A stretch of DNA of 64,000 nt from Clostridia bacterium. Its GTDB lineage: Bacteria > Bacillota > Clostridia > TANB77 > CAG-508. Numbering within the stretch: the stretch's first letter is position 1; each line of letters starts with the position of its first letter. Shown here in pieces: positions 38,351-64,000 of this stretch. Under the pieces are notes generated by a model. It was given only the letters and a program-made list of their open reading frames with translations, was not told the DNA's origin and did no database searches. A program made the translations under genes and the position numbers. The stretch covers positions 7,312 to 71,311 of the forward strand of contig JAFWKV010000017.1 of assembly GCA_017511265.1 (NCBI GenBank), written 5' to 3'.

Positions 38351-41300
38351 ATGAAAAACATTATAAAACAATTACTTATAAGTCTGATAGCATTTATCTC
38401 CTTAGCTGAATGCATAGTACCGCTATCAAGCTATGCTACAGAAAACAACATAGGTACAGATGGACTAATCAGACTAAACATAAAAGGAACAGACAGAACA
38501 ATAACAAAAACAACAACAATAGAAGAAATAAAAAGCTGGTATACAGGTGAGCATATATTTGAAACACCATCATTATATGGTGGAAAAGCATATAGCTTTT
38601 ATGTTGGCAACAATTTTGATGACTATTTATACATTGAAACAATTGCAGATGGAACAATATTTAGCTATGGTTCAGTAGACCCTAGTTATAAAACAAATAC
38701 ATATAGCTTTGACGATAATTATCCATATGGAAAACTTACAGTACTTTCTGGATGCTTATTAAGTGATGAAGGTATTATAAAAGGTGGAGTTTATTACAAC
38801 AAAAATGCTTACTTAAAAGGAAAATTTAGTGACATAAAACAAGCATACAAAGATGCATTTGAAGAAGAATATTGCAAGGCAAATAATATAGAAAAATCAG
38901 AAATAGGTACAGAAAAAGACAAAGGCAGACAATCAAAAGCAATGCTAGATTTGTCCAAGCATGCAGTACTAATGTATAACGGGCTGATTAATTATTATGG
39001 CAGAACAGAAAGTTTTATGGAAACAGATAAAGATAAGAACGGAACAGATACATTCAAAACTTTTGAAGAATTCTTTGACATAAACAATCAATTGATTGAG
39101 AACGGTTCAAATTTATTTTCATATTTAATAAAAAAGGGATATGGCACAAGCTATTACTATTCATTAGGAACAAAAGCAGGTTGTGATTTATATGATAATT
39201 CGTATTCAATTTTTAGTCCGTTACAACTAGCCGGGATGGCTAAATTACAAAAAAATGCAGATCTAAGTACAAGAAACAATCCAGTTTGGACGTATAACTA
39301 TAAAAATAAAGTCTTGTTTGGAATATCTTTCAAAAAAGATTGTTTAAAAAGAGAAGATACTATACAATACACAGATGATGAACTAAATAAATTAAAACAG
39401 GCAAGAGGATACTATAAGGATGCAATTGCAGAATTAAATAAAGAAAAAGACATATATAAAATACAGCCAGTATTAACTCCACCAGAAAATATGCAAGCTG
39501 GGGAATTAGTGGATTCTAAAAAGAAAGGAATACTAAATTATTTCAATGCAATTCGTTCTGCAGCAGGTTTAGGAACGTTAAAAGGTGTGGAAAAAGGATA
39601 TGACACAGCACAGCATTTAACAACATTGCTTGCATATAGACTTAGGTATTTAGGACTTGGACCTACTCATTATCCTGAACAGCCAGAAGGAGTAGATAGA
39701 GATTACTGGAAAAAAGCAGTTCGGTTGGGAAACATCATGGGGAAATTCATTATCTTATGCCTCAATATCAGTAAATGAAGCAAATATGATGAGACATATA
39801 AACAACCTACTAAATGACAATGATGGTAGTCTTGACTTCGGACATAGACGTCATTTATTGCATCCTGGATATGCAGAGTTTGGATATGGAATTACTGAAT
39901 CTTTTGCAGAAGTTAATTTAAATGGATACCAAGATTATAAGTATATATTTAATGGATGGCCAGCTCCAAATGGAATTACATTTATGGAATCTTTAACTTA
40001 CAGAAAATTTATTTGGTCTGTAGCTTTCGATAGAAGCAAATACCTAGTTCAAAATTCTTGTACTGCTGAAATTAAATGCTTAAATACAGGTGAAAAATAT
40101 ATTTTTAATGAAGAAGAGGGAGAAGCTGATTCTAATCGAATTTATCAAAATATTGTAGAAGGTGAACAAATAGATTCTTTAATTAATAAAGTGGTTATTC
40201 GTGATAATAACATAGAACCTGTTGCAGGATATGCTTATGAAGTAACTATTCATGGACTTAAAAATGTAAGAACAGGAAAAATAGAAGATTATACATATAG
40301 AGTTAGATTTGACTATGCAGATGCAGCTTCTTATGGTAATTTACCAACAGGAATAACTATTGAACCTGATGCAAAACTTGAAAAGCTTTCAAATACAAAT
40401 AATACATATAGTGCAAAAGTAGGAGAAACATATAAATTAAATGCAATATTGGAAGGAATAGATGAAAACGTAATAGAAAGAAAAATCACTTGGGAGTCTT
40501 CAAACCCTGAATTAGTTACAGTTAAACAAGATGGAACTATAAAAATAAATAAAGATACCAATGACAAAAGTGCTACCATTACAGTATATCTTGATGCAAA
40601 TAAAAGCATACAAGAAGAAATAATAATAAAACCCCAAGATGTAACATTGATTTTAGATACTGAAAATTATACATTCACTAGTTTAGATGATACCTTACAA
40701 CTCTCACCACACCTAAGCAATAATGAAGAAACAACATTTACATATAAATCAAGTAATGAAAATATTTTAAAGGTAGATAAAAATGGAGTAGTAAAACCAA
40801 CAGCTCCTGGATTTGCTGATGTTTCTATAACAGATACAAAATATAATAAATCTGTTATATGCAGATTTTATGTTGCAACATTAGTAACATTATCAGATGG
40901 AAGCAAAGCCTATGTAGGTGATATGAATAGAGATGGAATGTTCAATTCAGTAGATAGTTCATTAATTATAGGTGCTTATAATAGAACTCCAACAGAAGAT
41001 GAAGCATTAATTGGTGATGTAAGTGGCGATGGATACTTAAATGCTGTTGACAGTAGTATCATTTTGAAATTGTTTAGTGAAGACGTTTTTTCACCAGGAA
41101 AATATTTCCCAATAACAAGTGTAAAACTTAGTAAAAATGAATTAACACTACAGCCAAATAAAAGTGAAACTTTAAAAGCAACAATAGAACCCAAAAATAC
41201 AACAGATAGTCCAAAAATAACATGGAAATCTAGTGATGAAGGCATAGCAAAAGTTGATGAAAATGGAAAAATTACCGCAATAGCAAAAGGATCTACAGAA

Positions 41301-41573
41301 ATAGTTGCAACATCTACAAATGGAAAAGAAGACAAATGCACTGTAACAGTTGCAGAAAACACAGATAAACCACAAACACTAAAAGGCGATGTAAATGGAA
41401 ACGGAATAGTAGAGTTAACAGATTATTCAATGATTTTAAAACATGTAAAAGGAATAAAATTACTTGAAGGAGAACAATTAAAAAGAGCAGATGTAAACGG
41501 TAATGGAACAATTGAACTTACAGACTACTCAATGGTATTAAAACATGTTAAAGGAATAAAATTATTATTTTAA
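38351..41573 (+). pseudogene. G1. Secreted protein: unknown N-domain + CAP + Big_2 repeats + internal dockerin + C-terminal dockerin. Frameshifted paralog of G3.
   Basis: ORFs 38351-39778 and 39786-41573 align end-to-end with the 1080-aa G3. Relative to the G3 segment AVRTGTSWGD, the run ggaaAcatca has an extra A, shifting the frame. Confidence 0.75.
41376..41570 (+). repeat. Dockerin-coding DNA repeat (G1 3' end)
   Basis: About 195-bp segment, roughly 85-95 % identical among eight genes. Encodes GDVNGNGIVELTDYSMILKHVKGIKLL twice. Confidence 0.7.
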
Positions 41574-41601
41574 TGATGTTAAATATTAGGGGGGAAAATT
41601 T

Positions 41602-44046
41602 ATGGAAAAAACGAGAATAAAGAAAATACTATCTACTGTACTAATTTCAATATTTTTATGTAGCAACATGGTTTTTGCAATAAATGAAAACAATAATAAC
41701 ATTGAATTGCCAAATGAAGCACCAGCTGTAAATTTTGAAGAAAATAATAAAATTGATGAAATTGAACAAAAAATAAAAATAGAAGATTTAGAAAAATCGA
41801 AGAAAAGTAATCAATACACTGAGAAAAAAATTACTCCCTCAAAATCAAAAAAATTTTTAAAATCTACTACAAAATCTACAGACAAATATGAAGGACATTT
41901 AGTTGAAAGCAAAAACGACATATCATCAACTTTTGTCGTAAGAGATGGAAAACATTATTCATATTTGATTGACGAAACTGTTTTGCCAGTAGTTTCTATT
42001 TATAGATATTGCTTTGAGACACAAGAAGAAAAAGAAATATATCATAATGAAGAATTAATGGTAAATGATTATTCATATTATATTCATAACAATGTATATT
42101 TAAAAGACAAAATGATATATTTTGCAGCCTTTTCAAAGAATGATGATAATCATATACACATAGTAGGCTATAATACACAAACTGAAACAATAAGCTATTC
42201 AAACATATTTAATATATCAAAAGATAGCTATGCTGAAAGCTTTTGTATAGATGATAGCGAAAATGCATACATTGTTATTAAAGGACAAACTGAAGGTACA
42301 TTTAGAATTAATTCATATGATAAAAATGGAACATTAATAAGTAAATTAAATAATGACATATTTGATAGTTTTTATTCTATAAAAATAACAAATTCAAATA
42401 ATAATATGATTTGGATAAAAGCATATGTTGAAAATGGAGATTATGTTAGCCCTAGAGATATTGCAATGAGAGTAAATAAGGGAGTTTTTATTACAGAAAA
42501 TTATGATATATTACGCAAGAAGGGAATAGAAATAAAATTTCTAAATGATGAGAAAAATATTGCATATGACAATTATGGAGAAATATTAAAATTCAATTAT
42601 ACTGATACAAGTGTAAGCTTTTCAGTGATAAACTATATTACAATCGATAAACAAAAAACAGTTACTGTTCCTTTCGAAAATACAGTAGAAGATTCATATT
42701 TATATGCAGGTGGAGAAAAGGGAACAATACTTAAATATAATTGGGATACATTTAAAATAGAACGATTTATTTCAATTGGAGAAAACAAAGATGTTATAGG
42801 AACATTTAAAGATGGAGACAAATTATATATTGAATATATGGATCCTAATACATATGATGTGTATGCTCTTATACTTGATTATGAAGATTTTATGACACCA
42901 CAGCAGACAATAGAACTAACAAATAATACGACTTTAAACAGAACAAAAGATGATATAAAGAGTAAGTACAATGAGCTTAAAATAGTAAAAGCAAATAATT
43001 ACAAAAATATTTACTCTGAAGCACCTTCAGTTACTGCACCTTATAAAGCAGGTGTACTTAATGAACAAGCTAAAAATGATACCTTAAATCAAATAAATTA
43101 TTTTAGATGGCTTGCTGGAGTAAATGAAGTAACTATAAATGAAAAGTACATGGAAAATGCACAGTGCGGAGCAGTTCTTTTGACAACAAGCAAAGAATTA
43201 ATGCACAATCCTGCTAAGCCAAGTGATATGACAGACGAATTTTATAATAAGGCATTAGGTGCTATATATGCAAAATTAGGAATACCTATGTCAGCAAATA
43301 TATCTAGATATTCGCCATTAGCTGAATCTATAAAAGGATATGTAGATGATACCAATAATATGGAACCAAATGTAGGACACAGATTAAGCATACTTGACTA
43401 TCAAGCTACAACTACATCTTTTGGATTTGCAGAAAAAAATGGAACAGTTGAAATGTTTACAGATTGGAGTAAAACACCAGACAATGCATTTTATGCATGG
43501 CCATCACCAGGAAACTTTCCAATAGAATCAATTGCAAGTCAAGCAATGTGGTCAATTAGATATGACCAAACGATATGCTTTGTGTCAGATAATGTTGATA
43601 TAAAATTAAAGGCTAATGGCAAAGAATACTCGTCTGCTAATAATGATTTTGAAGTATTCCACGATGAAGATTATAGTGCATTATATTACAAATTACCAAA
43701 TGAGTTACTAACTTATTTAACAGATGGAAAAAATACCATTCAAGCAAATAAAAAGGTTGAAGTTGAATTAAGTGGTCTAGCTGACCTTCAAGGAAATGCT
43801 TATATAATAAAATATCCAGTTGAATTTATGAGTGTAAAAGAAAAAGCATATCTTAAAGGTGATGTAAATGGGAACGGAATAGTTGAATTAACAGATTATT
43901 CAATGATATTAAAACATGTAAAAGGAATAAAATTACTTGAAGGAGAACAGAAACAAAGAGCAGATGTAAACGAAAATGGTAGAATTGAACTAACAGATTA
44001 CTCAATGGTATTAAAACATGTAAAAGGAATAAAATTATTATTTTAA
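41602..44046 (+). CDS. G2. Secreted protein with an unknown N-terminal region, a CAP/SCP-like domain and a C-terminal dockerin.
   Basis: Signal peptide. CAP-like NYFRWLAGVNEV...GHRLSIL. C-terminal GDVNGNGIVELTDYSMILKHVKGIKLLEGEQKQRADVNENGRIELTDYSMVLKHVKGIKLLF. Confidence 0.7.
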   Translation: MEKTRIKKILSTVLISIFLCSNMVFAINENNNNIELPNEAPAVNFEENNKIDEIEQKIKIEDLEKSKKSNQYTEKKITPSKSKKFLKSTTKSTDKYEGHLVESKNDISSTFVVRDGKHYSYLIDETVLPVVSIYRYCFETQEEKEIYHNEELMVNDYSYYIHNNVYLKDKMIYFAAFSKNDDNHIHIVGYNTQTETISYSNIFNISKDSYAESFCIDDSENAYIVIKGQTEGTFRINSYDKNGTLISKLNNDIFDSFYSIKITNSNNNMIWIKAYVENGDYVSPRDIAMRVNKGVFITENYDILRKKGIEIKFLNDEKNIAYDNYGEILKFNYTDTSVSFSVINYITIDKQKTVTVPFENTVEDSYLYAGGEKGTILKYNWDTFKIERFISIGENKDVIGTFKDGDKLYIEYMDPNTYDVYALILDYEDFMTPQQTIELTNNTTLNRTKDDIKSKYNELKIVKANNYKNIYSEAPSVTAPYKAGVLNEQAKNDTLNQINYFRWLAGVNEVTINEKYMENAQCGAVLLTTSKELMHNPAKPSDMTDEFYNKALGAIYAKLGIPMSANISRYSPLAESIKGYVDDTNNMEPNVGHRLSILDYQATTTSFGFAEKNGTVEMFTDWSKTPDNAFYAWPSPGNFPIESIASQAMWSIRYDQTICFVSDNVDIKLKANGKEYSSANNDFEVFHDEDYSALYYKLPNELLTYLTDGKNTIQANKKVEVELSGLADLQGNAYIIKYPVEFMSVKEKAYLKGDVNGNGIVELTDYSMILKHVKGIKLLEGEQKQRADVNENGRIELTDYSMVLKHVKGIKLLF
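43849..44043 (+). repeat. Dockerin-coding DNA repeat (G2 3' end)
   Basis: Same repeat family. Confidence 0.7.
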
Positions 44047-44050
44047 ATGA

Positions 44051-44083
44051 AGTTGTCAATGGGGACGGTTCTAATTGACAACT
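44051..44083. repeat. 33-bp palindromic element agttgtcaatggggacggttctaattgacaact between G2 and G3
   Basis: One mismatch relative to 23248-23280. Confidence 0.55.
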
Positions 44084-44101
44084 CATATGAAGGGATATAA
44101 A

Positions 44102-47100
44102 ATGAAAAACATATTAAAACATATTATATCAATACTAATATCAAACATAATACTAATACAAGCATTTATGCCTATAGTAAGTTATGCAGAAGATTCAAAA
44201 ATTGGGGCTGATGGTTTAATAATGCTAAATATTAAGGGTACAGACAGAACAGTAACTAAAACAACAACAATAGACGAGATAAAAAACTGGTATGCAGGAG
44301 AGCATATATTTGAAACACCATCATTATATGGTGGAAAAGCATATAGCTTTTATGTGGGCAGCAATTTTGACGACTATTTATACATCGAAACAATAGCAGA
44401 TGGAACAATATTTAGTTATGGTTCAGTGGACCCTAGCTATAAAACAAATACATATAGTTTTGGAGATGAATATCCATATACCGAAAGAAATGTTTTATAT
44501 GGATGCCTTTTGTCAGATGATGGTAAAATAATTGGTGGAGTTTATTATAATAAAAAAGCTTATTTAAATGGTAATACAAACAAAATAAAACAAGCATATA
44601 AAGATGCTTTTGAAGAAGAATATTGCAAAGAAAACAAAATAGAAAAATCAGAAATAGGGACAGAAAAAGATACAGGTAGACAACCAGAAATTATTCGTAA
44701 TTTATCTAAACATGCAATACTTATGTATAATGGATTAATACATTATTACAATCGTGATGAGAGCTTTATGCAAACTGATAGAGATGAAAATGGAGATACA
44801 TCTTTTACGACATTTGATGAATTTTTTGACATTAATAATCAATTTATTGAATTTAAAACAACAGCCTTTAACTATATTGATGATATGAATTATAATTCAG
44901 ATTATTATTATGTTTTAGGTGCAAAATCCGATTGCGAAATATATAATTCATATTATATTTTTAACCCATTACAAATGGCAGGAATGGCAAGAATACAAAA
45001 AAATACGAACTTAAGTAATAGAAATATTCCAGTATGGACATATAATTATAATGAAAAAAAATTACAAGGTATATCTTTTTGGAAAGATTGTTTTAAAAGG
45101 ATAGAAAAAGTTGAATTAACGCAAGAACAACAAGAAAGATATAAAAAATTAAGAGAATATTATGCTAAAGGTGAAGAAAAATTAAATAAAGAAGAAGGAA
45201 TGTATAAAACATTACCTTATTATGATGAGCCAGAAAAAATGGTCGCAGGTGAATTATTACAATCAAAAAAAGAAGGAATTAGAGATTACTTCAATGCAAT
45301 AAGAGCTGGATGTGGGCTAAAGCCAGTGCAAATAGGAGAACAAGGATTTGACATAGCACAACATATGACTACACTTTTACAATATAGATTTGAAAAGTTT
45401 GGAACAGGACTATCACATCATCCAGATAAGCCAGAAGGTGTTAGTCAAGAATACTTTGATATAGCGGTTAGAACTGGTACATCATGGGGAGATTCACTAT
45501 CGTTTATGGCAAGAACAGCGAATTCAGAAGGGATGAAACAACATATAAATAACATGTTGTTTGATGATAACAAAGATTATCAATATGGACATAGACACCA
45601 TTTATTAACATCATTTTATTCAGACTTTGGATATGGAATAACTGGATTTTTTGCATCTTTACAATTAAAAGGAGCAAATGGAGATTATGCTCCGTGTGTA
45701 GCATGGCCAGCTTGTAATGGGGTTACTATGATGGAATCTTTGGGACAAAGAAATTTCGCTTGGACAATTAAGTTTTATGAACTTTACTATGAAATATTAG
45801 ACTCGTGCAAAACAGAAATAAAAAATTTAAATACAGGCAAAGTATATACATTTGATAAGGAAGAAGGTGATGTTGATTCTAGGCGCTTATATCAAAATCT
45901 TACTTTTGATGATATAACATATTCGTTTGCAAATAAAATATTACTTAAAGAACCTGAAATAAAGCCCATGGCTGGAGAAGTATATGAAGTAACTGTAAAG
46001 GGTATAAAAAATGTAAAAACAGGAAATATTGAAGATTACACATACAGAACGGCGTTTGTGTACGGAGACTCAAGCAAAGATATAGAAACACCAAAATCTA
46101 TAGACATAGAAGTTGATGAAAATTTAGAAAAAACATCAGCTAATACTTATACAGGAAAAGTAGGCAATGAATATAAATTAAATGCAATAATTGACGACTT
46201 AAATGCTGTAGACAAAAAAATTACATGGTCATCTTCAAATAGTGAATATGTATCAGTTAATCAATATGGAAAAATAAAAATAAATAAAGAAGGTAAAGAT
46301 GCTATAATTACCGTTTCACTAGATGCAGATAAAAACATACAAAAAAAGATAAAAATAACACCAGAAGATTTTAAAATAATTATTGACAATGATAAAATAA
46401 AGAACAACACTTATACATTTACAAGTCTAAATGAAATATTACAATTGCCTGTATATTTAAGTAATGGGGAAGATACAACATTTACATATAGCTCAAGCAA
46501 TGAAAAAGCAATAAAGATAAATGAAAATGGAACTGCAACATCTGTAGCAGGAGGATTTGCTAATATAACAGTTACAGATACTAAATCAGGTAAAAGTGTA
46601 ATATGTGATTGCTATGTACAAGTTCCTGTGATATTAAGTGATGGAAGTAAAGCTTATGTTGGAGATATGAATAGAGATGGAATATTTAATGCATTAGATA
46701 CTGCTAATATTTTAGATTCTTATAAAAATAATCCGAGTACTGACCAAATATTAGTAGGAGATATAAATGGAGACGGCAATTTGACTTCACTAGATGCATC
46801 TAAAGCAATTGACTTATTTAAAGCAGGTATATTTTTACCTGGTAAATATTATCCTATAACAAAGGTAAGCTTAAATAAAACAGAATTAACACTACAGCCA
46901 AATAAAAATGAAACCTTAAAAGCAACAATAGAGCCAGAAAATACTACAGATAGTCCAAAACTAACATGGAAATCTGGTGACGAAAGCATAGCAAAAGTTG
47001 ATGAAACCGGAAAAGTTACCGCAATAGCAAAAGGCTCTACAGAAATAACTGCAACATCTGCAAATGGAAAAGAAGACAAATGCAATATAACAGTTATAGA

Positions 47101-47317
47101 AAATATAGATAAACCACAAAAACTAAAAGGCGATGTAAATGGAAATGGAATAGTAGAGTTAACAGATTATTCAATGATTTTAAAACATGTAAAAGGAATT
47201 AAATTACTTGAAGGAGAGCAAAAAGAAAGAGCAGATGTAAACGAAAATGGTACAATTGAACTAACTGATTACTCAATGGTACTAAAACACGTAAAAGGAA
47301 TTAAATTATTATTTTAG
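44102..47317 (+). CDS. G3. Secreted protein: N-domain + CAP-like + Big_2 x3 + internal dockerin + C-terminal dockerin.
   Basis: Signal peptide. YGHRHHLL CAP motif. Big_2 (ITWSSSNSEYVSVNQYGKIKI; KLTWKSGDESIAKVDETGKVTAIAKGSTEITA). Internal GDMNRDGIFNALD...GDINGDGNLTSLD. C-terminal dockerin pair. Confidence 0.75.
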   Translation: MKNILKHIISILISNIILIQAFMPIVSYAEDSKIGADGLIMLNIKGTDRTVTKTTTIDEIKNWYAGEHIFETPSLYGGKAYSFYVGSNFDDYLYIETIADGTIFSYGSVDPSYKTNTYSFGDEYPYTERNVLYGCLLSDDGKIIGGVYYNKKAYLNGNTNKIKQAYKDAFEEEYCKENKIEKSEIGTEKDTGRQPEIIRNLSKHAILMYNGLIHYYNRDESFMQTDRDENGDTSFTTFDEFFDINNQFIEFKTTAFNYIDDMNYNSDYYYVLGAKSDCEIYNSYYIFNPLQMAGMARIQKNTNLSNRNIPVWTYNYNEKKLQGISFWKDCFKRIEKVELTQEQQERYKKLREYYAKGEEKLNKEEGMYKTLPYYDEPEKMVAGELLQSKKEGIRDYFNAIRAGCGLKPVQIGEQGFDIAQHMTTLLQYRFEKFGTGLSHHPDKPEGVSQEYFDIAVRTGTSWGDSLSFMARTANSEGMKQHINNMLFDDNKDYQYGHRHHLLTSFYSDFGYGITGFFASLQLKGANGDYAPCVAWPACNGVTMMESLGQRNFAWTIKFYELYYEILDSCKTEIKNLNTGKVYTFDKEEGDVDSRRLYQNLTFDDITYSFANKILLKEPEIKPMAGEVYEVTVKGIKNVKTGNIEDYTYRTAFVYGDSSKDIETPKSIDIEVDENLEKTSANTYTGKVGNEYKLNAIIDDLNAVDKKITWSSSNSEYVSVNQYGKIKINKEGKDAIITVSLDADKNIQKKIKITPEDFKIIIDNDKIKNNTYTFTSLNEILQLPVYLSNGEDTTFTYSSSNEKAIKINENGTATSVAGGFANITVTDTKSGKSVICDCYVQVPVILSDGSKAYVGDMNRDGIFNALDTANILDSYKNNPSTDQILVGDINGDGNLTSLDASKAIDLFKAGIFLPGKYYPITKVSLNKTELTLQPNKNETLKATIEPENTTDSPKLTWKSGDESIAKVDETGKVTAIAKGSTEITATSANGKEDKCNITVIENIDKPQKLKGDVNGNGIVELTDYSMILKHVKGIKLLEGEQKERADVNENGTIELTDYSMVLKHVKGIKLLF
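47120..47314 (+). repeat. Dockerin-coding DNA repeat (G3 3' end)
   Basis: Same repeat family. Confidence 0.7.
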
Positions 47318-47336
47318 ATAATTATTGGAGAAGAAT

Positions 47337-54632: not shown

Positions 54633-56315
54633 ATGAAAAATAAAAATAGTATTTTAATAAAATTTATATTTACTTTTGTATTAATAGCAACAATAACTCA
54701 AACAAACTTTATCTATGCAACTGCTTTAGAAGATGAAGAAGTATATGAAAGTTTACTTACAACAAATGAGCAAGAAGAGACAGACACAGGAAACCTAACT
54801 TATGCCTCTGGAGTTACAGATGAAATGTGCAAGCCAGAATATTGGGCAAGCAAAATAAAAGATGCAAGTAAGGTATTAATGACAAAATCAGAAATATCAA
54901 AGCTAAACCAAGATATTATAGACGGAGCTGGAACAAATGTATTTGATTTAACTAAAATTAACGAAACAAAAACTCCATCTGAAAGAGCGCAAATATTAGC
55001 AAACAGTGAAGACATTCCAATAAGAAATCTCTATATAGATGGTACATTAATAGATAATAATACATATTTTACAAAACTAAAAAATGCAATGATAGAAACT
55101 GGGTTTGATGGTGATGAAACAGTTCAAAAGTATGCAGTAGCTGTAAAAAGAGCAGATGTAAGAGTATGGCCAACAAATGATGTAATAGGCTATAGTGAAA
55201 CAGATCCAGATGACGAAATTGAAAATTCAATATTAAATGTAAATGAACCATTTGTAATAAGAGGAAAATGTGAAGTAGATGGCAAAACATTTTATTGGGG
55301 AAATTCAAATGTTTGCCCAGGATGGGTAGATGCAGAAAATTTAGCAATATGTGAAAGCAAAGAAGAATGGATAGATGCATGGCAAGTAGATGTATCAGCA
55401 AAAGACTTTCTTGTTGTAACACAAGATAAAATTACGCTAGAGCCATCTCTTTCAGTGCCAGAAACATCTGAAATAAAATTGATGATAGGAACAACTTTAA
55501 AATTAGTTTCAAAAAGTGATTTGCCTAAAAACATAGGTGAAAGAGGAACTTGGAATAATTATGTTGTATATTTACCAACAAGAGATGAAGATGGAAACTA
55601 TGTTAAACAATATGCATTAATATCACAGCACTATGATGTAAGTATTGGATTTTTACCAATGACACAAGAAAACATATTAAAAGTTGCATTTTCATGTTTA
55701 GGAAACAGATATGGCTGGGGTGGAATGTTAGGTGCAATGGATTGCTCATTATATAGTAGAAGTATTTATGAATGCTTTGGCTTAGAACTACCTAGAAATA
55801 CTACTTGGCAGATGAAGGTACCAGGAAAAGTTACAGATGTTTCAGAGAAGAATGATGAAGAAAAAGAAGCATTTTTAGAAAAACAAGCAGTAGGAGCAAT
55901 TCTCTTCTTCCCAGGACATGCAATGGTCTATACTGGCAATGAAAATAACACAAGCTATACAATAAGCGCAACAGGATCACTTTCTGATAGTATTGGTGAG
56001 CTAAATGTACAAAGTATGTATTCAGTAATTTTAAATCCATTAACAACCAGAAGAAGAAATGGAAGAACATGGCTAAATAATTTAACTTATGTATTGAGCT
56101 TTGGTGAAAACAATGAAGAGCTAATAGGTGACGTAAATGGAAACGGAATAGTAGAACTAACAGACTATTCAATGATATTAAAACATGTAAAAGGAATAAA
56201 ATTACTTGAAGGAGAACAATTAGAAAGAGCTGATGTAAACCAAAATGGAAACATAGATTTAACAGATTATTCAATGGTATTAAAACATGTAAAGGGAATT
56301 AAATTATTGAATTAA
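54633..56315 (+). CDS. G7. Secreted SH3b + NlpC/P60 (YkfC-like gamma-D-Glu-diamino acid endopeptidase type) with C-terminal dockerin.
   Basis: NRYGWGGMLGAMDCSLYSRSIY...PGHAMVY (Cys-His NlpC/P60). Dockerin at the C-terminus. Confidence 0.75.
   Translation: MKNKNSILIKFIFTFVLIATITQTNFIYATALEDEEVYESLLTTNEQEETDTGNLTYASGVTDEMCKPEYWASKIKDASKVLMTKSEISKLNQDIIDGAGTNVFDLTKINETKTPSERAQILANSEDIPIRNLYIDGTLIDNNTYFTKLKNAMIETGFDGDETVQKYAVAVKRADVRVWPTNDVIGYSETDPDDEIENSILNVNEPFVIRGKCEVDGKTFYWGNSNVCPGWVDAENLAICESKEEWIDAWQVDVSAKDFLVVTQDKITLEPSLSVPETSEIKLMIGTTLKLVSKSDLPKNIGERGTWNNYVVYLPTRDEDGNYVKQYALISQHYDVSIGFLPMTQENILKVAFSCLGNRYGWGGMLGAMDCSLYSRSIYECFGLELPRNTTWQMKVPGKVTDVSEKNDEEKEAFLEKQAVGAILFFPGHAMVYTGNENNTSYTISATGSLSDSIGELNVQSMYSVILNPLTTRRRNGRTWLNNLTYVLSFGENNEELIGDVNGNGIVELTDYSMILKHVKGIKLLEGEQLERADVNQNGNIDLTDYSMVLKHVKGIKLLN
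56118..56312 (+). repeat. Dockerin-coding DNA repeat (G7 3' end)
   Basis: Same repeat family. Confidence 0.7.
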
Positions 56316-56332: not shown

Positions 56333-59300
56333 ATGAAGAAATTTATTTCAGTAATCGTTTTAGCTATTTTTCTAGCAAATTTAAACTTACCAATTGTATC
56401 ATTTGCTGTGGAAGAAACAGAACAAAGCACAGAAAAAAATGAGCAACAACAAGAGGCTGTTCAAGAAGAACAAAAACAGCAAGAAGAAAATAATATAATA
56501 GAAGTAGAAAGTGAGACAAATGAGCAAAATGAGATGCAAGCTAAGCAGGAAAAGGAAGAACAAGACGAGCAAGTAAAAGAAGAAATAAACAAAAGTGAAG
56601 AGACAAAAGGAACAGAAAATAAAGAAAATCAAGAAGAACAACAAGAACCAGAACGTAATTTAGATTCAGAAGACGAAATAGTAGAATTAGACGAAAAAGT
56701 AAAAAATGCTATTTCAACATATTATGATATAGATGATAATGATGATGGAGAATATTCTAAAAAAGAATTAGCAAATCCAAACTTAACTTCTATAAATATA
56801 GATTGCAATCAAGACACTGTAGATTTATCAGGAATTCAATACATGACATATTTAACTGGTATTGATATGTACAATATAAATGGAAGTATTGATTATACAT
56901 ATTTAGTAGAAACAGAAAACTTAAGAAGAATTTCATTGAATGGTAACGTAAAAAATATCAGTAAAATTGCTGAGATAAGCAATTTAGAAACACTTAGTAT
57001 AAATTTATATAATTACGAAGATGATTGTATAGAAGAATTATATAGTGATATTAGTAAAATGACAAATATAAACGAACTTGATTTGTTAAATTGTGATTGT
57101 AATAATTTAAAAGCACTAGAAAATTTAGATAACATAAAGAGGTTGTGGCTAGATCAAAAGTATGGCACAACTTTAGATATTGAAACTTTGTCAAAAATGA
57201 AAGCACTAGAATATTTAACAATACAATACAATGGTGAAAACATTGCATGGTTGGAAAATTTAAGTAATCTTAAAGATCTTAGGCTTCTAGGTTATAATGA
57301 CAGAGTTGAATTTACAGAAGATTTTTTTGAAGATATAAAAAAATTATCAATAGAAAGTGTTCATACTGATTCTCGCTCCATATTGAATTTTGGAAAAATA
57401 GAAATAGGACAAACCAAAGAATTAAAATTTGAAGATTTTCCAATATTGAAAGAGATGTGTGATGAAAATAGTATTTTTCATGAATCAGATTGGAATTTAA
57501 TTGTTTCAGAAAATCAAGAAGAAGGAACTAATACAGATTGTATTCATATAGATAATGAAAACCGCAAAATTTCTATAACACCAACAGAGGAAAGTCGAAA
57601 AGAAATTTATATAGATAAGAACAAATTTGCATGGGGACTAGGAAATCATTTTATTATAACTTGGGAAGAACCAGAGGATAATGAAATAGTAGAAATAAGT
57701 AGTGAATCTATAAAAAATGCATTAGAGAACAAATACATAGATAAGAATGGAGACGGAAAATATACAAAAGGTGAATTAGCAGATATAAACTTACAATCAA
57801 TTGCTATATTTATAAATGAAGACCAAATTGACTTATCACCATTAGAATATATGAAAAATTTGAACTATGTAGATATTAACCTCAATTATTACAACAACAG
57901 TAAAATAGATTTATCAGTATTAAAAAAATTAAATAAATTGGAATGGCTGAGTGTATTTAATTTAAAAGATGTAACATCTTTAAGTGTACTAACTAATATA
58001 AAAAAACTAAGCATAGAAACAACTAGCGAAAATTTTGAAGAAAAATTAAAAATAATAAGCAGACTAAGTAATCTTGAGTATTTATACATATATGATATAA
58101 ACACAGATGTTGATATAGATGAATTAACATCACTAAATAATCTAAAACAATTATCTTTAGATAGTTCAGGTAGTAATATTAAGATAAATTTAGATAATAT
58201 AGAAAAATTAAACAACTTGACTGAACTAAGTTTAAGAAATTTTAATTATGAGAATTTTAACAGCATAGAAAAACTTTCAAAATTAAAAAGCCTAACCCTA
58301 TCTACAAGATTTGATGAGAAATTAGATATTGATACAATATCTAAACTGAACAATTTAGAACAATTAAGTATAGAAGAATTTGTAGACGACGTAAATTGGC
58401 TTTCTGACTTAACAAATTTAAAATCTTTAACATTATATATAAAAAATAATCAAAAAGGTTTAGATGAAAAGTTTTTTAACGTAATAGATAGTTTGAATTT
58501 GGAAAATCTTAACATACAGGGGGATTATTCAATAAATCTTGGAGAATTAGAACCTGGTGTAATGACGGAATTTGACTTTGCTGATATACCACTATTAAAA
58601 AAAGCAATGGATCAAGAAAGTACATTTTATACTGAAAATTTAAGATTAGATGTTAACGAATACCAAGATAATAGAGTTGATAAAAACTGTATTCAAATAG
58701 ACAATGAAAATCATAAAATATATATAACAGCTCCAGAAGACCCAAAAGCAAAAAAACAAATTACTATTAGTCAAAATACGGGACAATTTTATAATATTAA
58801 ATTTACATGGTCTAACCCAGGTGATGATGAAATAATTGAAATAGACGATAAAATTGCTGAAGCTATAAAACAAAATAATTCTAATACTGATGAAAATGGA
58901 GATGGAAAATTTAGCAAAGGAGAGCTTGCTAATATAGAAAATTTATATATTAATTGTAATTCTAACAAAATTGACTTATCAGCCCTTGAATATATGATTA
59001 ATCTTGAATATCTTTCTATTTATAGTATGTCAGAAGGAACTGACCTATCACCGCTAATAAAATTGAAAGAACTAAAAAATCTTACTATATATGGCAATTT
59101 TAAAGACTTTAATCAAATTACAGAATTAACTAATCTAGAAACACTTAATATATATGTATACAATGGGTTAAATACGCTTGATGGATTAAATAAACTTAAT
59201 CACTTAAATAATCTTACTTTACAAGGATTTGATTGTAAAGATTTAAGTGGAATAGAAAATATACCAAATTTAAAACAGTTAAGCATAAGAATTGGAAATG

Positions 59301-61651
59301 CCAATGACATAGTAGATGTAAATAGTATTTCGAAAATAGAAAATTTAGAAACACTAACGGTAGAAAACTTTAATCCAAATAATATAGAATGGATACGAAA
59401 TATTGATGGCTTAAATGAATTAACTTTAACACACTATTCATATTCTGAAAGTAATGAAATGGAGTTAGACAGCCAATTTTTTGATACATTAAAAACGTTT
59501 AATATTCAAAAAATAAAACTAAATGGAAGCTATATTGTAAATTTAGGAGAACTAGAAAATGGTGTAGAAAGAACATTTAATTTTGCAGATATACCAATAT
59601 TAAATGCCTGTACAGATAAAAACAGTAAAATATATAATGTAGAGTATGAAAAGTTTTATATTAATAAAGATGGCAAAAATCAACTAACAATAAATGATAA
59701 TAAATCTTTTACACTAACGCCAACTGATAGTAATGAAAAAACAAAAGAGATATATAATTATTCTGTTAATGTAAAACTAAAGTGGTCAAATCCTGGAGAT
59801 AATGACATAGTACCTTTAAGTGAACCAATAAAAAGATCGATTGGCACATATTATGACAAAAATGGAGATGGAGAATTTACAAAATTAGAATTAGAATCTC
59901 AGAATCTTACAAATTTAAGGATTAGCTTTAGAGACAATGAAGAATGTGATATAACAGGAATAGAACACTTGAAAAATTTAACATACCTATCTATCAATTC
60001 TAATAAAAACACAGATTTTTCAGAACTTAAAAAATTGGATAAATTAGAAGAGATATCAATAAGTGGAGATTTCAATGACATTTCAACATTAAAAGACGTA
60101 ACACAGTTAAAAATAGTTAACTTAAGCCAATACAATGATAATATAATAAATTTAAGCATACTTAAGAATTTGACTAATTTGGAAAGCTTAAGAGTAAACT
60201 CAAATGTTACTAATATTACTGAATTGAAAGATTTAGCTAAATTGAAAAAACTTGAGATTTCATATAATTATGACAGCAATAAGGTTAAATTAAGTGAAAT
60301 AACACAATTAATTAATATAGAAAATTTAAGACTTTCAAATATAGATGAAAAAGACTTAACAGGACTAGAAAAAATGACAAATGTTTCAACATTATACATA
60401 ACACTTAAGAACGAAATAATTGATAAATTAGATACAAATACATTGGTAAAAATGAATTCCATAAAAGAGCTTAGTATAAACGCTATGAATGATATAAGCT
60501 GGATAGAAAACATTCCTACATTAGAAAAACTAACTTTAAGTGGATATTATAATTTTGAGATTACACAAGATTTAATAAATACGATTAATAATAGCCAAAT
60601 AGATATTATACTAACAGGGTCATTTTATACTAATTTAGGAAGTATTTATTTAGGAAATACTTTAGAGTATGAATTAAACAATGTTTTATTACTAAAAGAA
60701 TTAACAGATAAAAACAGTAAATTATATGACGAAAGATTTAACATAGAGTATAGTAAAACAGAAGGCAGAATATCAGATATAGAAGTAACTCCAACAGAAG
60801 GAAAAATAAAAATAAAGGCAAGAGAATTTGGTACAGATAGTAAAAGGTTCAGTACTTATTATAGTTCAGAAAATAAATTTACAGGACAAATCTATATAAA
60901 ATGGCAAAACATTATGCCAGGAGATACTACAAAAGAAATAGAGTTCAAAGATGAAAACCTAAGACAAGCTTTACTTGAAAATTATGACTGTGATGATGAC
61001 AAAAGAATCACAGAACAAGACATGATTAATATAGAAAGCTTAAATTTATATAATAAAGGAATAAAAGATATTTCAGGTTTAGAAAAGGCAATAAATGTTA
61101 GGTATGATATAAACTTATCAAATAATAAAATTAAAGATGCCACAATTGCAGCTCAAATGCTAAATCTAAATGATGAAGTATACATATATTTGGATAATAA
61201 CGAAATTGAAAATGTTACACATATAAAAGATGCTAATTTTGATAGAATTAATTTAAATGGAAATTATATTGATTTTTCAGAAAATTCTGAAAATAAAAAA
61301 ATAGTAGTAGATAAATTAACAGTACTATATTCAAAAGTTTATGATGAATTTACTGAAGAACTACAAGATTATTTTGGTAGCAAAGAAGAATATATAAATG
61401 AAAGGATATCAGAATATTTTGAATATTCTGCAGGAAATCAAAAAACAAAACCATATCTAAAAGGTGATGTAAATGGCAATGGAGCTGTTGATTTAACAGA
61501 CTATTCAATGATATTAAAACATGTAAAAGGTATTAAATTACTTGGAGGAGAACAAAAAGAAAGAGCAGATGTGAACGGTAACGGAACAATAGAACTTACA
61601 GATTATTCAATGGTATTAAAACATGTAAAGGGAATAAAACTACTATTTTAA
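56333..61651 (+). CDS. G8. Giant (1772 aa) secreted LRR protein with an acidic E/Q-rich N-terminal region and C-terminal dockerin.
   Basis: Signal peptide. EEQ-rich low-complexity stretch. Four similar LRR super-repeats, each ending in a WSNPGD-like segment. Dockerin pair. Confidence 0.7.
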   Translation: MKKFISVIVLAIFLANLNLPIVSFAVEETEQSTEKNEQQQEAVQEEQKQQEENNIIEVESETNEQNEMQAKQEKEEQDEQVKEEINKSEETKGTENKENQEEQQEPERNLDSEDEIVELDEKVKNAISTYYDIDDNDDGEYSKKELANPNLTSINIDCNQDTVDLSGIQYMTYLTGIDMYNINGSIDYTYLVETENLRRISLNGNVKNISKIAEISNLETLSINLYNYEDDCIEELYSDISKMTNINELDLLNCDCNNLKALENLDNIKRLWLDQKYGTTLDIETLSKMKALEYLTIQYNGENIAWLENLSNLKDLRLLGYNDRVEFTEDFFEDIKKLSIESVHTDSRSILNFGKIEIGQTKELKFEDFPILKEMCDENSIFHESDWNLIVSENQEEGTNTDCIHIDNENRKISITPTEESRKEIYIDKNKFAWGLGNHFIITWEEPEDNEIVEISSESIKNALENKYIDKNGDGKYTKGELADINLQSIAIFINEDQIDLSPLEYMKNLNYVDINLNYYNNSKIDLSVLKKLNKLEWLSVFNLKDVTSLSVLTNIKKLSIETTSENFEEKLKIISRLSNLEYLYIYDINTDVDIDELTSLNNLKQLSLDSSGSNIKINLDNIEKLNNLTELSLRNFNYENFNSIEKLSKLKSLTLSTRFDEKLDIDTISKLNNLEQLSIEEFVDDVNWLSDLTNLKSLTLYIKNNQKGLDEKFFNVIDSLNLENLNIQGDYSINLGELEPGVMTEFDFADIPLLKKAMDQESTFYTENLRLDVNEYQDNRVDKNCIQIDNENHKIYITAPEDPKAKKQITISQNTGQFYNIKFTWSNPGDDEIIEIDDKIAEAIKQNNSNTDENGDGKFSKGELANIENLYINCNSNKIDLSALEYMINLEYLSIYSMSEGTDLSPLIKLKELKNLTIYGNFKDFNQITELTNLETLNIYVYNGLNTLDGLNKLNHLNNLTLQGFDCKDLSGIENIPNLKQLSIRIGNANDIVDVNSISKIENLETLTVENFNPNNIEWIRNIDGLNELTLTHYSYSESNEMELDSQFFDTLKTFNIQKIKLNGSYIVNLGELENGVERTFNFADIPILNACTDKNSKIYNVEYEKFYINKDGKNQLTINDNKSFTLTPTDSNEKTKEIYNYSVNVKLKWSNPGDNDIVPLSEPIKRSIGTYYDKNGDGEFTKLELESQNLTNLRISFRDNEECDITGIEHLKNLTYLSINSNKNTDFSELKKLDKLEEISISGDFNDISTLKDVTQLKIVNLSQYNDNIINLSILKNLTNLESLRVNSNVTNITELKDLAKLKKLEISYNYDSNKVKLSEITQLINIENLRLSNIDEKDLTGLEKMTNVSTLYITLKNEIIDKLDTNTLVKMNSIKELSINAMNDISWIENIPTLEKLTLSGYYNFEITQDLINTINNSQIDIILTGSFYTNLGSIYLGNTLEYELNNVLLLKELTDKNSKLYDERFNIEYSKTEGRISDIEVTPTEGKIKIKAREFGTDSKRFSTYYSSENKFTGQIYIKWQNIMPGDTTKEIEFKDENLRQALLENYDCDDDKRITEQDMINIESLNLYNKGIKDISGLEKAINVRYDINLSNNKIKDATIAAQMLNLNDEVYIYLDNNEIENVTHIKDANFDRINLNGNYIDFSENSENKKIVVDKLTVLYSKVYDEFTEELQDYFGSKEEYINERISEYFEYSAGNQKTKPYLKGDVNGNGAVDLTDYSMILKHVKGIKLLGGEQKERADVNGNGTIELTDYSMVLKHVKGIKLLF
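61454..61648 (+). repeat. Dockerin-coding DNA repeat (G8 3' end)
   Basis: Same repeat family. Confidence 0.7.
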
Positions 61652-61657
61652 AAGAAC

Positions 61658-61872
61658 ACAAAAATCAACCAAAATGAATTGGTTACTATTCAGACTAAGC
61701 TTTTATAGAGTAGCCTAAATGTTGATATATAAATATATTGAAAGAACAAGACCAGTAGGAAGACCCCAGCTATGTTTTGTTCAAAATATATTTATATATC
61801 AACATTTAGGCGGAAATAATTATAATCTAGTCTGAATAGTAACATGAATTATCCTTTTTGGTTGATTTTTGT
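61658..61872. repeat. Nested palindromic MITE-like element after G8, related to R1. Its right arm also matches 117-180.
   Basis: Outer arms caaaaatcaaccaaaa.../...ttttggttgatttttg. Inner arms cctaaatgttgatatata.../...tatatatcaacatttagg. The core ggaagaccccagctatgttttg resembles R1. The segment catttaggcgga.ataattataatctagtctgaa.agtaaca recurs at 137-178. Confidence 0.55.
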
Positions 61873-61928
61873 TGAAAGAAGAAATTACTTTTGATATAAT
61901 ATAGATGTTTAATTAAGGAGGTGTTTAA

Positions 61929-64000
61929 ATGACAAATAAAAGACTTTTAATCATCACACTACTAATAACAATACTACTAGAAATAATTTATTCAACAATT
62001 AATCCAATAGTACTTGCAACAGAAGCAAATACAATAAAACTTAATTTTACAAAATACAAATTTGAAAACTTAAATTCAAACATCCAACTTCAAGCATCAT
62101 TTACAGGTGAAACAGAAAAAATCACATGGAAAAGTGACAATGAAAATGCTGTAGCAGTTGACCCAAATGGTAAAGTTACACCAAAATCAGCAGGATTTTC
62201 ATACATAAGAGCAAAAGGAACAACATGTTCAGCTGAATGCATGATATATGTTGCAACACCAGTACAATTAAGTGATGGTAGCTATGGATATGTAGGAGAC
62301 TTAGACAGAAATGGAATATTAGATGCAAATGATGCATCACTAATAAGTGAAATATATAGAACAGAACAAGGAAATAAAGAAATTGCAGACATTGATGGTA
62401 ATGGTGTAATAGATGTAAATGATTCAAGCTTGCTAATGGATATATTCCGTTTTTATGAATTCACAGTTCCTGCTACTAAACCAAACGAACAAAATAATGA
62501 TGACGAAAACGAGCAAGGAAATCAAGGCGAAAAGCCAACGAATCCTGCAGAAGAACAGCAACAAGAACAAACATATACAAACGACTTAGAAGAAACAGAC
62601 CTAATTCGTATATATAATTCAAAAACTGGATTTGACTTTAAAATAAATAAAGATACAACAATTAATGAAGTTATAGCAAAATACGGAGAGCCAAAAATAA
62701 AAACAGAAAGTGCCTTTGGCGGATCTGCATATACATTTTATACAGACGACAAATATAGCAATTATCTATACCTTGAAACAACAGTAAATGATGCAACAAT
62801 AATATCTTATGGAACTGTATGGAATGAGTACTTTACATATAATTCAGGATATGGTGAAAAAGAAGACGTTACTGATAATTTACTATTACATGGCTATTTT
62901 ATAAATAATGGCATTGATTTAATAATTAGAGGAGGAATGTATTATAATACACAAAAATTAATAGAAAATAATTATGACAAAACAGTAGGAACATATAAAA
63001 CAAACTATAAAAACAACCCGTCATTATACTTAAAATCAATAGCAAAACATGCAACAACAATGTATAATGCAATATGTACAATAAATGGATGTACATGTAA
63101 CTTACAATTTAATGAAGACATATTTTATACAAATGAGCAACTAAAGCAAAATGACTCATCAATAAAAATTTATGCAGAAAATAATGGAAAAATGCCATAT
63201 TTAAAAGGCATAGGCGCTAGAGATAATGTGCAAGTTACAAGTAGATATTATGTATTATCTCCTATATATTTTGCAGATATGTTCTTTTCTGAGCCATTAA
63301 ACAAAATTGATATGCCAGAAAGATATAAATACGCTGTTTTTGACTATAATCAAGACAACCAAGTAATTGAAGCATATGTTATAGAAGAAGACATGTTTAA
63401 AATTTGGAATAAAGTAGCATTAACAACAGAAGAAACAACAAAATTAAATGAAGCAAGAAACTATTATAATACAGCAATGGATTTATTTAACAACAATACA
63501 GGAAGCATCTATAAAAGTGAGCCAATTGATAATCCGGCGGAAAGTTTATATGCAGGTGAACTAAAAGAAACGATGAAACAAGCTGCAACAGCATACTATA
63601 ATGCTATTAGAGCAGGACAAGGATTATCTAGTGTAGTACAAAATGAAACAGGAAGAAAACAAGCACAAGCAATGTCAATACTACAAAGCTATAGATGGCA
63701 CCAATTAGGACTTGGAATTACGCATACTCCTGAACAACCAGCAGGTGTATCTGATAACTTTTTTAATACTGCTACAGGATATGGACAAGTAAGTCTTGCA
63801 GAAAATATTGCAATGTCAAATAATTTAGAACCATCAATATATTCTATTCAAAAATATATTAAACAGTTTATGGATGATAGTTCAGAAACGCCTTTTAGAC
63901 TAGGACATAGAACATCATTATTAATGCCATCAAATGCTAATATAGGTTATGGAATTGCAAAATCTATAGGCGTTATGGAGATAGGGCATAATACAAAATT
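61929..64000 (+). CDS. G9 (partial, runs off the window). Secreted protein: Big_2 + internal dockerin + linker + N-domain + CAP-like domain, a permuted order relative to G1/G3.
   Basis: AGGAGGTG ribosome-binding site. Open frame from 61929 to the window end with no stop. Absent from the ORF track because it has no stop. Contains YVGDLDRNGILDANDASLISEIY...ADIDGNGVIDVNDSSLLMDIF and GHRTSLL. Confidence 0.7.
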   Translation, partial: MTNKRLLIITLLITILLEIIYSTINPIVLATEANTIKLNFTKYKFENLNSNIQLQASFTGETEKITWKSDNENAVAVDPNGKVTPKSAGFSYIRAKGTTCSAECMIYVATPVQLSDGSYGYVGDLDRNGILDANDASLISEIYRTEQGNKEIADIDGNGVIDVNDSSLLMDIFRFYEFTVPATKPNEQNNDDENEQGNQGEKPTNPAEEQQQEQTYTNDLEETDLIRIYNSKTGFDFKINKDTTINEVIAKYGEPKIKTESAFGGSAYTFYTDDKYSNYLYLETTVNDATIISYGTVWNEYFTYNSGYGEKEDVTDNLLLHGYFINNGIDLIIRGGMYYNTQKLIENNYDKTVGTYKTNYKNNPSLYLKSIAKHATTMYNAICTINGCTCNLQFNEDIFYTNEQLKQNDSSIKIYAENNGKMPYLKGIGARDNVQVTSRYYVLSPIYFADMFFSEPLNKIDMPERYKYAVFDYNQDNQVIEAYVIEEDMFKIWNKVALTTEETTKLNEARNYYNTAMDLFNNNTGSIYKSEPIDNPAESLYAGELKETMKQAATAYYNAIRAGQGLSSVVQNETGRKQAQAMSILQSYRWHQLGLGITHTPEQPAGVSDNFFNTATGYGQVSLAENIAMSNNLEPSIYSIQKYIKQFMDDSSETPFRLGHRTSLLMPSNANIGYGIAKSIGVMEIGHNTK

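Follow-up and report, generated by a model that had tools for sequence, protein, structure and literature searches.

A dockerin gene cluster from a gut Clostridia genome, bracketed by a class B sortase gene and a candidate cohesin anchor, as a putative surface-display system

Introduction

Cohesin-dockerin pairing has mostly been studied as the glue of cellulosomes. What, then, do dockerins hold together in a compact, apparently complete locus whose cargo is adhesin-, peptidase-, and CAP-like? This question is raised by a 64-kb stretch of the Clostridia contig JAFWKV010000017.1 (the window), in which positions 38351 to 64000 carry nine consecutive plus-strand genes, G1 to G9, whose products end in nearly the same dockerin. 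We extended the window by 7.6 kb through its overlap with an ENA metagenome scaffold (ERZ28654795 scaffold_375), to which it is identical (0 mismatches over 17,668 bp); this completed G9 and brought the sequence examined to 71.6 kb of the genome. Judging from sequence comparison, we consider it likely that the locus encodes a complete cohesin-dockerin system for surface display of proteins, with its own candidate cohesin anchor (G10) and its own class B sortase.

Nine secreted proteins share a conserved C-terminal dockerin

All nine products have a predicted signal peptide, recognised from a basic N-terminal stretch and the hydrophobic 12-mer behind it (hydropathy 2.7-3.4), and the eight genes that are complete in the window end in a 61-residue module that passes the Pfam Dockerin_1 model (PF00404; 44-69 bits against a gathering cut-off of 22.9, E 2e-11 to 4e-19). 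The completed G9 ends in the same module, also above the cut-off. These modules are 87-97% identical at the protein level, whereas the passengers share only 30-63%. Both 12-residue loops of the module, DVNGNGIVELTD and DVNGNGTIELTD, fit the EF-hand-like pattern D-x-N-x-N-G-x-x-x-x-x-D, each is followed by YSM(I/V)LKHVKGIKLL, and the two halves agree at 21-23 of 26 positions; we infer that the C-terminal dockerin binds calcium. A single one of the 18 C-terminal loops is degenerate, the first loop of G5 (51527-51562), DINGNEIVELTD, in which Gly6 is replaced by Glu. The initial annotation of this DNA had described nine same-strand signal-peptide genes, eight of them ending in a near-identical module with two EF-hand-like loops in near-symmetric halves, and a partial ninth with an internal dockerin, and all of this holds. 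It had also called the dockerin type I. The assignment as a dockerin is secured by the Pfam threshold, but type I is not established: the Dockerin_1 model covers all dockerin types and so does not resolve the type, and the weak PDB matches of the candidate partner, G10, come from ScaB, the adaptor scaffoldin of A. cellulolyticus, whose cohesins count as type II.

The near-identity of the modules points to selection. Over the 36 module pairs, mean synonymous divergence (dS) is 0.71 and mean nonsynonymous divergence (dN) 0.041, so that dN/dS is ~0.06, compared with 0.4-0.85 in the passengers, which shows strong purifying selection on the modules. In the pairs G6-G8, G3-G9, and G2-G9, the dockerins reach or surpass the passengers in dS. 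Recent gene conversion, considered as the main cause of the identity, is rejected on these dS values. Since dN/dS is this low and dockerin dS averages ~0.7 and is as high as passenger dS in several pairs, the simplest reading is a constraint that all modules share, e.g., a single binding partner, rather than recent copying. Some exchange between modules is possible, because dS is lower (0.3-0.4) in the pairs G1-G3, G4-G5, and G5-G7.

In type I dockerins, two-fold symmetry is associated with a dual binding mode, and by analogy the symmetric halves suggest a dual binding mode for the C-terminal dockerin. Public data contain very little of this dockerin subtype: a word-indexed search recovered nine short fragments, none with an enzyme domain; a dockerin profile gave no confirmed relative among GTDB species representatives, where the host species is not represented.

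A candidate cohesin anchor and a class B sortase bracket the cluster

The only cohesin-type domain in the sequence examined is encoded by G10, 82 bp past G9 (Table 1). This N-terminal domain matches Pfam Cohesin (PF00963) at 34.4-35.1 bits against a cut-off of 24.1 (E 3e-8) and over profile positions 1-138 of 139, and 9 of 12 diverse members of the G10 family match the same model. A PDB profile search with the domain returned eight matches, six of which are cohesins (best E 3e-4) and two of which are non-cohesin DUF11-like domains. Word-indexed protein searches gave few and fragmentary matches, five for the G10 domain and one for the N-terminal domain of G4. The C-terminus of G10 consists of SSSPKTGDN, a hydrophobic stretch, and RRKRNK, and passes the LPXTG anchor model TIGR01167 (19 bits; cut-off 15.9). 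At the other end of the cluster, the gene upstream of G1 encodes a class B sortase (TIGR03064 sortase_srtB, 188.6 bits against a cut-off of 153.75, E 1.1e-55; Pfam Sortase, E 6e-16), with a public gene call of 238 amino acids (aa). With a cohesin that bears a sorting signal next to G9 and a sortase upstream of G1, the dockerin-based surface or extracellular complex proposed in the initial annotation is supported, and it is not refuted by the lack of a cohesin, as this genome does encode a candidate one. G10 is followed by a gene for a small DUF5640 membrane protein, a domain mentioned in no paper of the literature searched, and then by a gene for an FAD-dependent oxidoreductase, which ends the cluster.

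SrtB of C. difficile cleaves SPKTG, PPKTG, SPSTG, and SPQTG (PMC4155245), and these motifs recur across the G10-like family. The C. difficile system and the locus are alike in having a class B sortase and SPKTG, with SDSPKTGDN as the peptide tested there (PMC4155245) and SSSPKTGDN in G10; they are unlike in that no (S/P)PXTG substrate is described as a cohesin protein in PMC4155245.

Most related metagenome loci keep dockerin and cohesin genes adjacent

Scanning metagenome contigs with the G10 domain yielded 80 loci, many of them from the human gut; 58 clearly carry the domain, and 54 of these have upstream sequence. In 43 of the 54, the cohesin gene is preceded on its own strand by a dockerin gene, with 67-214 bp between the two, and this adjacency is kept in genomes of 25% to 61% guanine-plus-cytosine (GC) content. 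Roughly half of the complete cohesin proteins (24 of 47) end in SPQTG, SPSTG, SPKTG, TPKTG, PPKTG, or a close variant. Of 40 loci, 10 have a DUF5640 gene downstream of the cohesin gene, and a sortase gene often comes after it. The gene order in these loci supports the reading that the G10 domain is a working cohesin and that the adjacent C-terminal dockerins are its partners.

In the low-GC relatives L100 and L117, a dockerin cargo, either of leucine-rich repeats (LRRs) and a dockerin or of an unknown domain, Big_3, and a dockerin, is followed, in this order, by a cohesin anchor with TPKTG, DUF5640, and a sortase (Cohesin E 2e-6, DUF5640 E 8e-19; the L100 ortholog scores 28.5 bits with Cohesin). 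GC-rich relatives have three tiers, namely dockerin cargo of 1000-1800 aa without an enzyme family, an adaptor that combines a G10-like domain with a dockerin, and a canonical cohesin (E 3e-12) with SPPTG. No enzyme family was found among the relatives' cargo proteins that we scanned, which have only Big_2, Big_3, LRR, and one adhesive beta-helix domain.

Two features of individual loci deserve mention. In two GC-rich human-gut loci (L115:3470-8031 and L124:10001-16056), the final cohesin protein has Listeria-Bacteroides repeats, a Shr-like domain, and SPPTG. In L100 (10305-11036), a small secreted LPKAG protein adjoins the sortase, and its N-terminal half is cohesin-like by eye, with no Pfam match.

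Passenger domains are adhesin-, peptidase-, and CAP-like

The LRRs annotated in G6 and G8 are confirmed by Pfam (Table 1), and G8, with four LRR blocks, is a paralog of G6 (36% identity). A single EF-hand-like loop, e.g., DKDEDGEFTIEEL or DIDGNKKITKHDL, precedes each ~330-aa LRR block in these two proteins, and G8 has an acidic Glu/Gln-rich linker of ~100 aa after the signal peptide. The Ig-like Big_2 domains are above the cut-off (22.8 bits) in G1, G3, G4, and G5; the match in G9 is marginal (21.8 bits for the complete protein, 17.8 bits for the window fragment). CAP is the sole Pfam family matched at the corresponding region of G1, G2, G3, and G9, over profile positions ~1-105 of 117, with scores that straddle the cut-off of 21.1 bits (PF00188): 22.4 for the window fragment of G9 and 21.0 for the complete protein, 21.0 for the frame-repaired G1 (E 6e-4), 19.9 for G2 (E 1.4e-3), and 15.7 for G3 (E 0.028). 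The best PDB profile match of the region is PrgA (E 0.38), a protein with a CAP domain. The annotated CAP-like domains of these four proteins are thus consistently but weakly supported.

Papain-like peptidases had been proposed for both G5 and G7, and the proposal survives for G7, which passes NLPC_P60 (PF00877; 34.9 bits against 23, E 1.7e-8) and has a catalytic region akin to the tail-associated lysin regions of phages (phrog_329, E 1e-5). The N-terminus of G5 has no papain-like peptidase match in Pfam (E up to 10), NCBIfam, PHROGs, or PDB sequences; it contains a Cys...His...Glu-Cys-Asn pattern that is papain-like by eye only. The ~340-aa N-terminal domain common to G1, G3, and G9 has no PDB match by profile search. 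As initially stated for the passengers of G1 to G9, no glycoside hydrolase is among them: in Pfam, no glycoside hydrolase, esterase, lyase, or carbohydrate-binding module (CBM) family is above cut-off in G1 to G10, and G10 has only a sub-threshold match to CBM_X2 (18.8 bits against 28.9). Elsewhere in the window there is a single glycoside hydrolase, a GH57 branching enzyme encoded on the minus strand, which is probably not secreted because its Pfam match begins at residue 9.

The N-terminal domain of G4 is nearly an orphan, with one homologous cluster in 1.84 billion representative proteins (exhaustive HMMER search) and an AlphaFold2 model of low confidence (pLDDT, the predicted local distance difference test, of 34). 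We considered it as a second cohesin on account of a cohesin-like strand pattern seen by eye and rejected it, as all sequence tests were negative: it has no Pfam match at E up to 10, phmmer and profile searches of the PDB gave nothing, and hhalign against the G10 family gave a probability of 0.1%.

Four cargoes carry a second, internal dockerin

Besides the C-terminal module, G1, G3, G5, and G9 each have an internal dockerin whose sequence is of another type (e.g., DMNRDGIFNALD...DINGDGNLTSLD), which Pfam reports as a second Dockerin_1 stretch and which scores 68-83 bits on a local hidden Markov model built partly from the same modules. In every case, an Ig-like domain and the motif LSDGS(K/Y)xYVGD come before it, and this cassette lies toward the N-terminus of G9 and close to the C-terminus of G1, G3, and G5. 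Position 18 is Lys in the C-terminal dockerin type and Asp in the internal type, which makes it plausible that the two types differ in specificity. No partner cohesin for the four internal dockerins was identified in the 71.6 kb. In its arrangement of Ig-like domain, motif, and dockerin, the cassette resembles an X-Doc dyad.

A model of the locus and its alternatives

We propose that G10 is exported and that the adjoining class B sortase would cut SPKTG and join G10 covalently to peptidoglycan. The Ig-like and Cys-rich repeats of G10 would form a stalk that holds out its one cohesin at the N-terminus, and the nine cargoes would compete for this single cohesin type through their shared, symmetric, calcium-binding dockerin. 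The resulting cell wall would carry a mixture of interchangeable, non-covalently held cargoes: adhesin-like proteins with LRRs or Ig-like domains, proteins with CAP domains, and one or more peptidoglycan peptidases of the NlpC/P60 family. Through their second dockerin type, four of the cargoes could bring in an additional layer via another cohesin. The role would likely be gut adhesion and remodelling of the cell wall or matrix rather than polysaccharide breakdown. Within this model, the domain identities, the gene order, the sorting signal, the sortase class, the conserved adjacency of dockerin and cohesin genes, and the purifying selection on the dockerin are seen in the sequences, and the binding of the C-terminal dockerin to G10, its calcium dependence, the anchoring by the locus sortase, and the biological role are predictions.

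A wider reading strikes us as possible, though rather doubtful. The gene order of dockerin cargo, single-cohesin anchor with (S/T/P)PxTG, DUF5640, and class B sortase, met in genomes of 25% to 61% GC, may represent a widespread but unnamed module with which gut Firmicutes mount giant adhesins and wall hydrolases non-covalently on a stalk anchored by sortase, and which would here take its most expanded form, with nine interchangeable cargoes and a second tier built from the X-Doc-like internal dockerins and a cryptic cohesin beyond the reach of sequence methods, possibly the N-terminal domain of G4. This order of dockerin cargo, cohesin anchor, DUF5640, and sortase genes is in no paper of the literature searched.

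Several points weigh against surface display through G10. The view of the genome is confined to the 71.6 kb, and dockerin-tagged enzymes could be encoded outside it. The PDB cohesin matches to G10 span only its first ~40 residues, the first ~55 residues of the domain also pass DUF11-type models (TIGR01451, 32 bits; PF01345, 25 bits), and AlphaFold modelling of a G10 homolog, P0002, with a 5-sequence alignment reached a pLDDT of 37. That G10 would pair with the C-terminal rather than with the internal dockerin type is itself a prediction, and one cohesin per nine cargoes is an unusual ratio. The related loci are redundant, as many are the same species resampled, and fall into ~15 clusters at 80% identity.

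The confined view bears on the possibility that these genes encode just the non-enzymatic share of a more extensive cellulosome- or amylosome-like system for polysaccharide degradation, with glycoside hydrolases that carry dockerins and multi-cohesin scaffoldins encoded elsewhere in the genome. In R. flavefaciens FD-1, which does produce a cellulosome, head-to-tail clusters of dockerin proteins with transglutaminase-like and LRR modules occur together with the sortase-anchored single-cohesin ScaE (PMC2930009), and many cohesins of ruminococci escape sequence detection (PMC13463774). We nevertheless regard this as unlikely: the ten cluster proteins have no carbohydrate-active enzyme (CAZyme) or CBM family above cut-off, neither the scanned cargo of related loci nor the rare public fragments of the dockerin subtype have an enzyme domain, and the window's one glycoside hydrolase is the opposite-strand GH57 protein.

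The DUF11 matches would instead fit a G10 N-terminal domain that is a DUF11 or Ig-like adhesin, next to the cargo genes merely through a shared surface location, while the dockerins bind another partner, such as a distant cohesin, a wall polymer, or a host ligand; the two DUF11-like PDB matches and the low pLDDT of P0002 point the same way. This, too, is improbable, because the DUF11 match covers just profile positions 4-64 of 114, whereas the Cohesin match covers the full 139-position profile, because dockerin and cohesin genes stay adjacent across so wide a GC range, and because the G10-like and dockerin protein of the GC-rich relatives, followed by a canonical cohesin anchor, forms a typical scaffoldin hierarchy. 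A mainly offensive or host-directed complex, in which surface NlpC/P60 and CAP proteins would attack neighbouring bacteria or host structures, in the manner of C. perfringens toxin and glycosidase complexes, rather than serve adhesion or self-remodelling, would suit the lysin-like peptidase G7 and the general occurrence of CAP domains and LRRs in host-interaction proteins, but is very unlikely, as the cluster has no toxin, immunity, or secretion-system genes and its coding capacity goes mostly to Ig-like and LRR repeats.

Gene layout and genomic context

Table 1. Features of the cluster and its flanks. Positions are those of the window, continued past its end where stated; L005 positions are given for the downstream genes.
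Feature	Position	Strand	Content
Class B sortase	37472-38245	+	105 bp upstream of G1; likely true start ATG at 37529
G1	38351-39778 + 39786-41573	+	Predicted signal peptide, ~340-aa domain without known family, CAP-like, Big_2, two dockerins
G1 internal dockerin	40917-41075	+	
G1 C-terminal dockerin	41385-41567	+	
G2	41602-44046	+	Predicted signal peptide, ~450-aa N-terminal region without known family, CAP-like, dockerin
G2 CAP-like region	~43084-43443	+	
G2 dockerin	43858-44040	+	Dockerin_1 E 8e-12
G3	44075-47317	+	Predicted signal peptide, domain without known family, CAP-like, Big_2 domains, two dockerins
G3 CAP-like region	~45284-45640	+	
G3 internal dockerin	46661-46819	+	
G3 C-terminal dockerin	47129-47311	+	
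G4	47325-49511	+	Predicted signal peptide, orphan ~200-aa N-terminal domain, Big_2 array, dockerin
G4 N-terminal domain	47421-48050	+	Residues 33-242
G4 dockerin	49323-49505	+	
G5	49529-51715	+	Predicted signal peptide, N-terminal domain, Big_2, two dockerins
G5 internal dockerin	51311-51469	+	
G5 C-terminal dockerin	51527-51709	+	
G6	51801-54599	+	Predicted signal peptide, LRR blocks each after an EF-hand-like loop, dockerin; LRR_14 E 1.5e-15, LRR_4, EF-hand_1 E 7.7e-8 (residues 707-726)
G6 dockerin	54408-54590	+	Dockerin_1 E 1.6e-13
G7	54633-56315	+	Predicted signal peptide, NlpC/P60 peptidase domain, dockerin
G7 NlpC/P60 domain	55701-55946	+	
G7 dockerin	56127-56309	+	Dockerin_1 E 2.3e-11
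G8	56333-61651	+	1772 aa; predicted signal peptide, acidic linker, four LRR blocks, dockerin; LRR_14 E 2e-29
G8 dockerin	61463-61645	+	Dockerin_1 E 9e-13
G9	61929-64000 (partial in window); end at 65546 in continued numbering	+	Complete protein 1205 aa; predicted signal peptide, Ig-like and internal dockerin, domain without known family, CAP-like
G9 internal dockerin	62295-62447	+	
G9 CAP-like region	63594-63965	+	
G9 beyond window		+	Weakly scoring Ig-like (Big_2/Big_15) domains, then the shared C-terminal dockerin
G10	65629-68472 in continued numbering (L005:19297-22140)	+	947 aa, outside window; predicted signal peptide, candidate cohesin domain (residues 31-164), three Big_2, at least four RYYR-CCHC Cys-rich repeats, sorting signal
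DUF5640 small membrane protein	68538-68936 in continued numbering (L005:22206-22604)		After G10

From G1 to G8, neighbouring genes are only 7-85 bp apart, and no plus-strand terminator-like site was found, which suggests co-transcription; the gap before G9 is 277 bp. Promoter-like sites with an extended -10, which are pattern matches only, precede G1 (38263-38291) and G9 (61872-61900) and suggest two transcription units, G1-G8 and G9-G10. The promoter and terminator scans as such were uninformative, with counts not clearly above those of shuffled sequence in this AT-rich DNA. A palindrome with an 18-bp stem lies at 37445-37486, between a ZIP transporter gene and the sortase gene. G1, a paralog of G3 (60-63% identity), is one gene that a +1 frameshift, located within a GGGAAA run (~39727-39733), breaks into open reading frames (ORFs) of 475 and 595 aa. 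The split also appears in the gene calls of the independent public ENA scaffold_375; its cause may be true pseudogenisation, slippage at this site, or an error in the assembly.

GC content is ~28% overall and uniform (25-30%) across the window. Upstream of the cluster lie housekeeping genes identified by Pfam (PNPase, FTHFS, an AddA-like helicase, and NrdD). The best match of PNPase among GTDB species representatives is only 83%, to an uncultured Clostridia metagenome-assembled genome from rabbit gut, with human-gut genomes of this kind next, which places the host among the uncultured Clostridia of the gut, as a species outside the GTDB species representatives. A mobile-element origin of the cluster is unsupported, given the uniform GC content and the housekeeping nature of the flanking genes scanned; no integrase or phage protein was found among the proteins scanned, which cover part of the upstream ORFs only. 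Rfam and tRNA scans of the window gave no match. Among the housekeeping genes, positions 7931-9796 encode an acidic protein of 621 aa that is coiled-coil-rich by eye and has neither a Pfam family nor a signal peptide.

Comparison with known systems

The initial annotation did not recognise the locus as a described system. This was overstated, since parts of it have been published for ruminococci (PMC2930009, PMC3573020, PMC13463774), and each element of the locus has precedent; CAP and LRR modules, for instance, occur on scaffoldins of ruminococci (PMC13463774). The cargo genes recall the group 4b cluster of R. flavefaciens FD-1 (ORF01263-01267), in which four transglutaminase-like proteins and one LRR protein are encoded head to tail (PMC2930009), and the same species has an NlpC/P60-like X-Doc protein, RflaF_05439 (PMC3573020). 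Both clusters are tandem, same-strand arrays of signal-peptide genes with near-identical C-terminal dockerins and with papain-like and LRR passengers. The FD-1 cluster, however, belongs to a genome with >200 dockerins, most of them on CAZymes, and has no flanking cohesin anchor or sortase, whereas G1 to G9 are bracketed by their own cohesin anchor and sortase, with no CAZyme seen.

G10 is most readily compared with ScaE of R. flavefaciens and R. champanellensis, a sortase-anchored LPXTG protein with a single cohesin (PMC2930009, PMC13463774, PMC7456326). In both cases, a single N-terminal cohesin sits on a protein with a sorting signal, which in ScaE is anchored by sortase and receives dockerin proteins. 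G10 differs in its SPKTG, in the class B sortase encoded in the locus, and in a stalk of Big_2 and RYYR-CCHC repeats, and its sequence similarity to solved cohesins is marginal, with the best PDB profile match being the one given above. The partner of ScaE is the X-Doc of a CAZyme-carrying scaffoldin, while the nine cargoes here are non-enzymatic proteins or peptidases; unlike the ScaE partners, the cluster contains no CAZyme, CBM, or multi-cohesin scaffoldin in the 71.6 kb.

Cohesin-dockerin assemblies with other tasks have been described. A survey of non-cellulosomal cohesins and dockerins (Peer et al. 2009) is cited in PMC2930009, and the scaffoldins of R. difficilis have Ig-like and LRR domains that are proposed to promote adhesion (PMC4611034, PMC13463774). 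The R. bromii amylosome and R. difficilis-like assemblies share with the locus a gut Firmicute host and a non-cellulolytic nature. They organise amylases and CBM26, however, and no starch-active module was found in the cluster. Non-cellulosomal complexes of C. perfringens, reportedly described by Adams et al. in 2008, link secreted glycoside hydrolase toxins through cohesins and dockerins. They likewise place this pairing outside plant-cell-wall degradation in a low-GC gut Firmicute, but link toxins to one another, whereas here a putative wall-anchored cohesin would hold adhesin-like and peptidase cargo.

If surface display through G10 is correct, the related anchor cassettes in many human-gut metagenome contigs would make cohesin-dockerin docking a widely used means by which gut Firmicutes load and exchange proteins at their surface, and this would affect how they colonise, aggregate, and interact with other bacteria. 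The locus also offers a naturally orthogonal, highly symmetric dockerin together with a single cognate cohesin candidate. Compared with the systems above, the locus is compact and differs in that a sortase and a cohesin anchor of its own surround nine non-CAZyme cargoes, that the predicted anchoring is of the SrtB/SPKTG kind, and that a conserved DUF5640 cassette is part of the arrangement.

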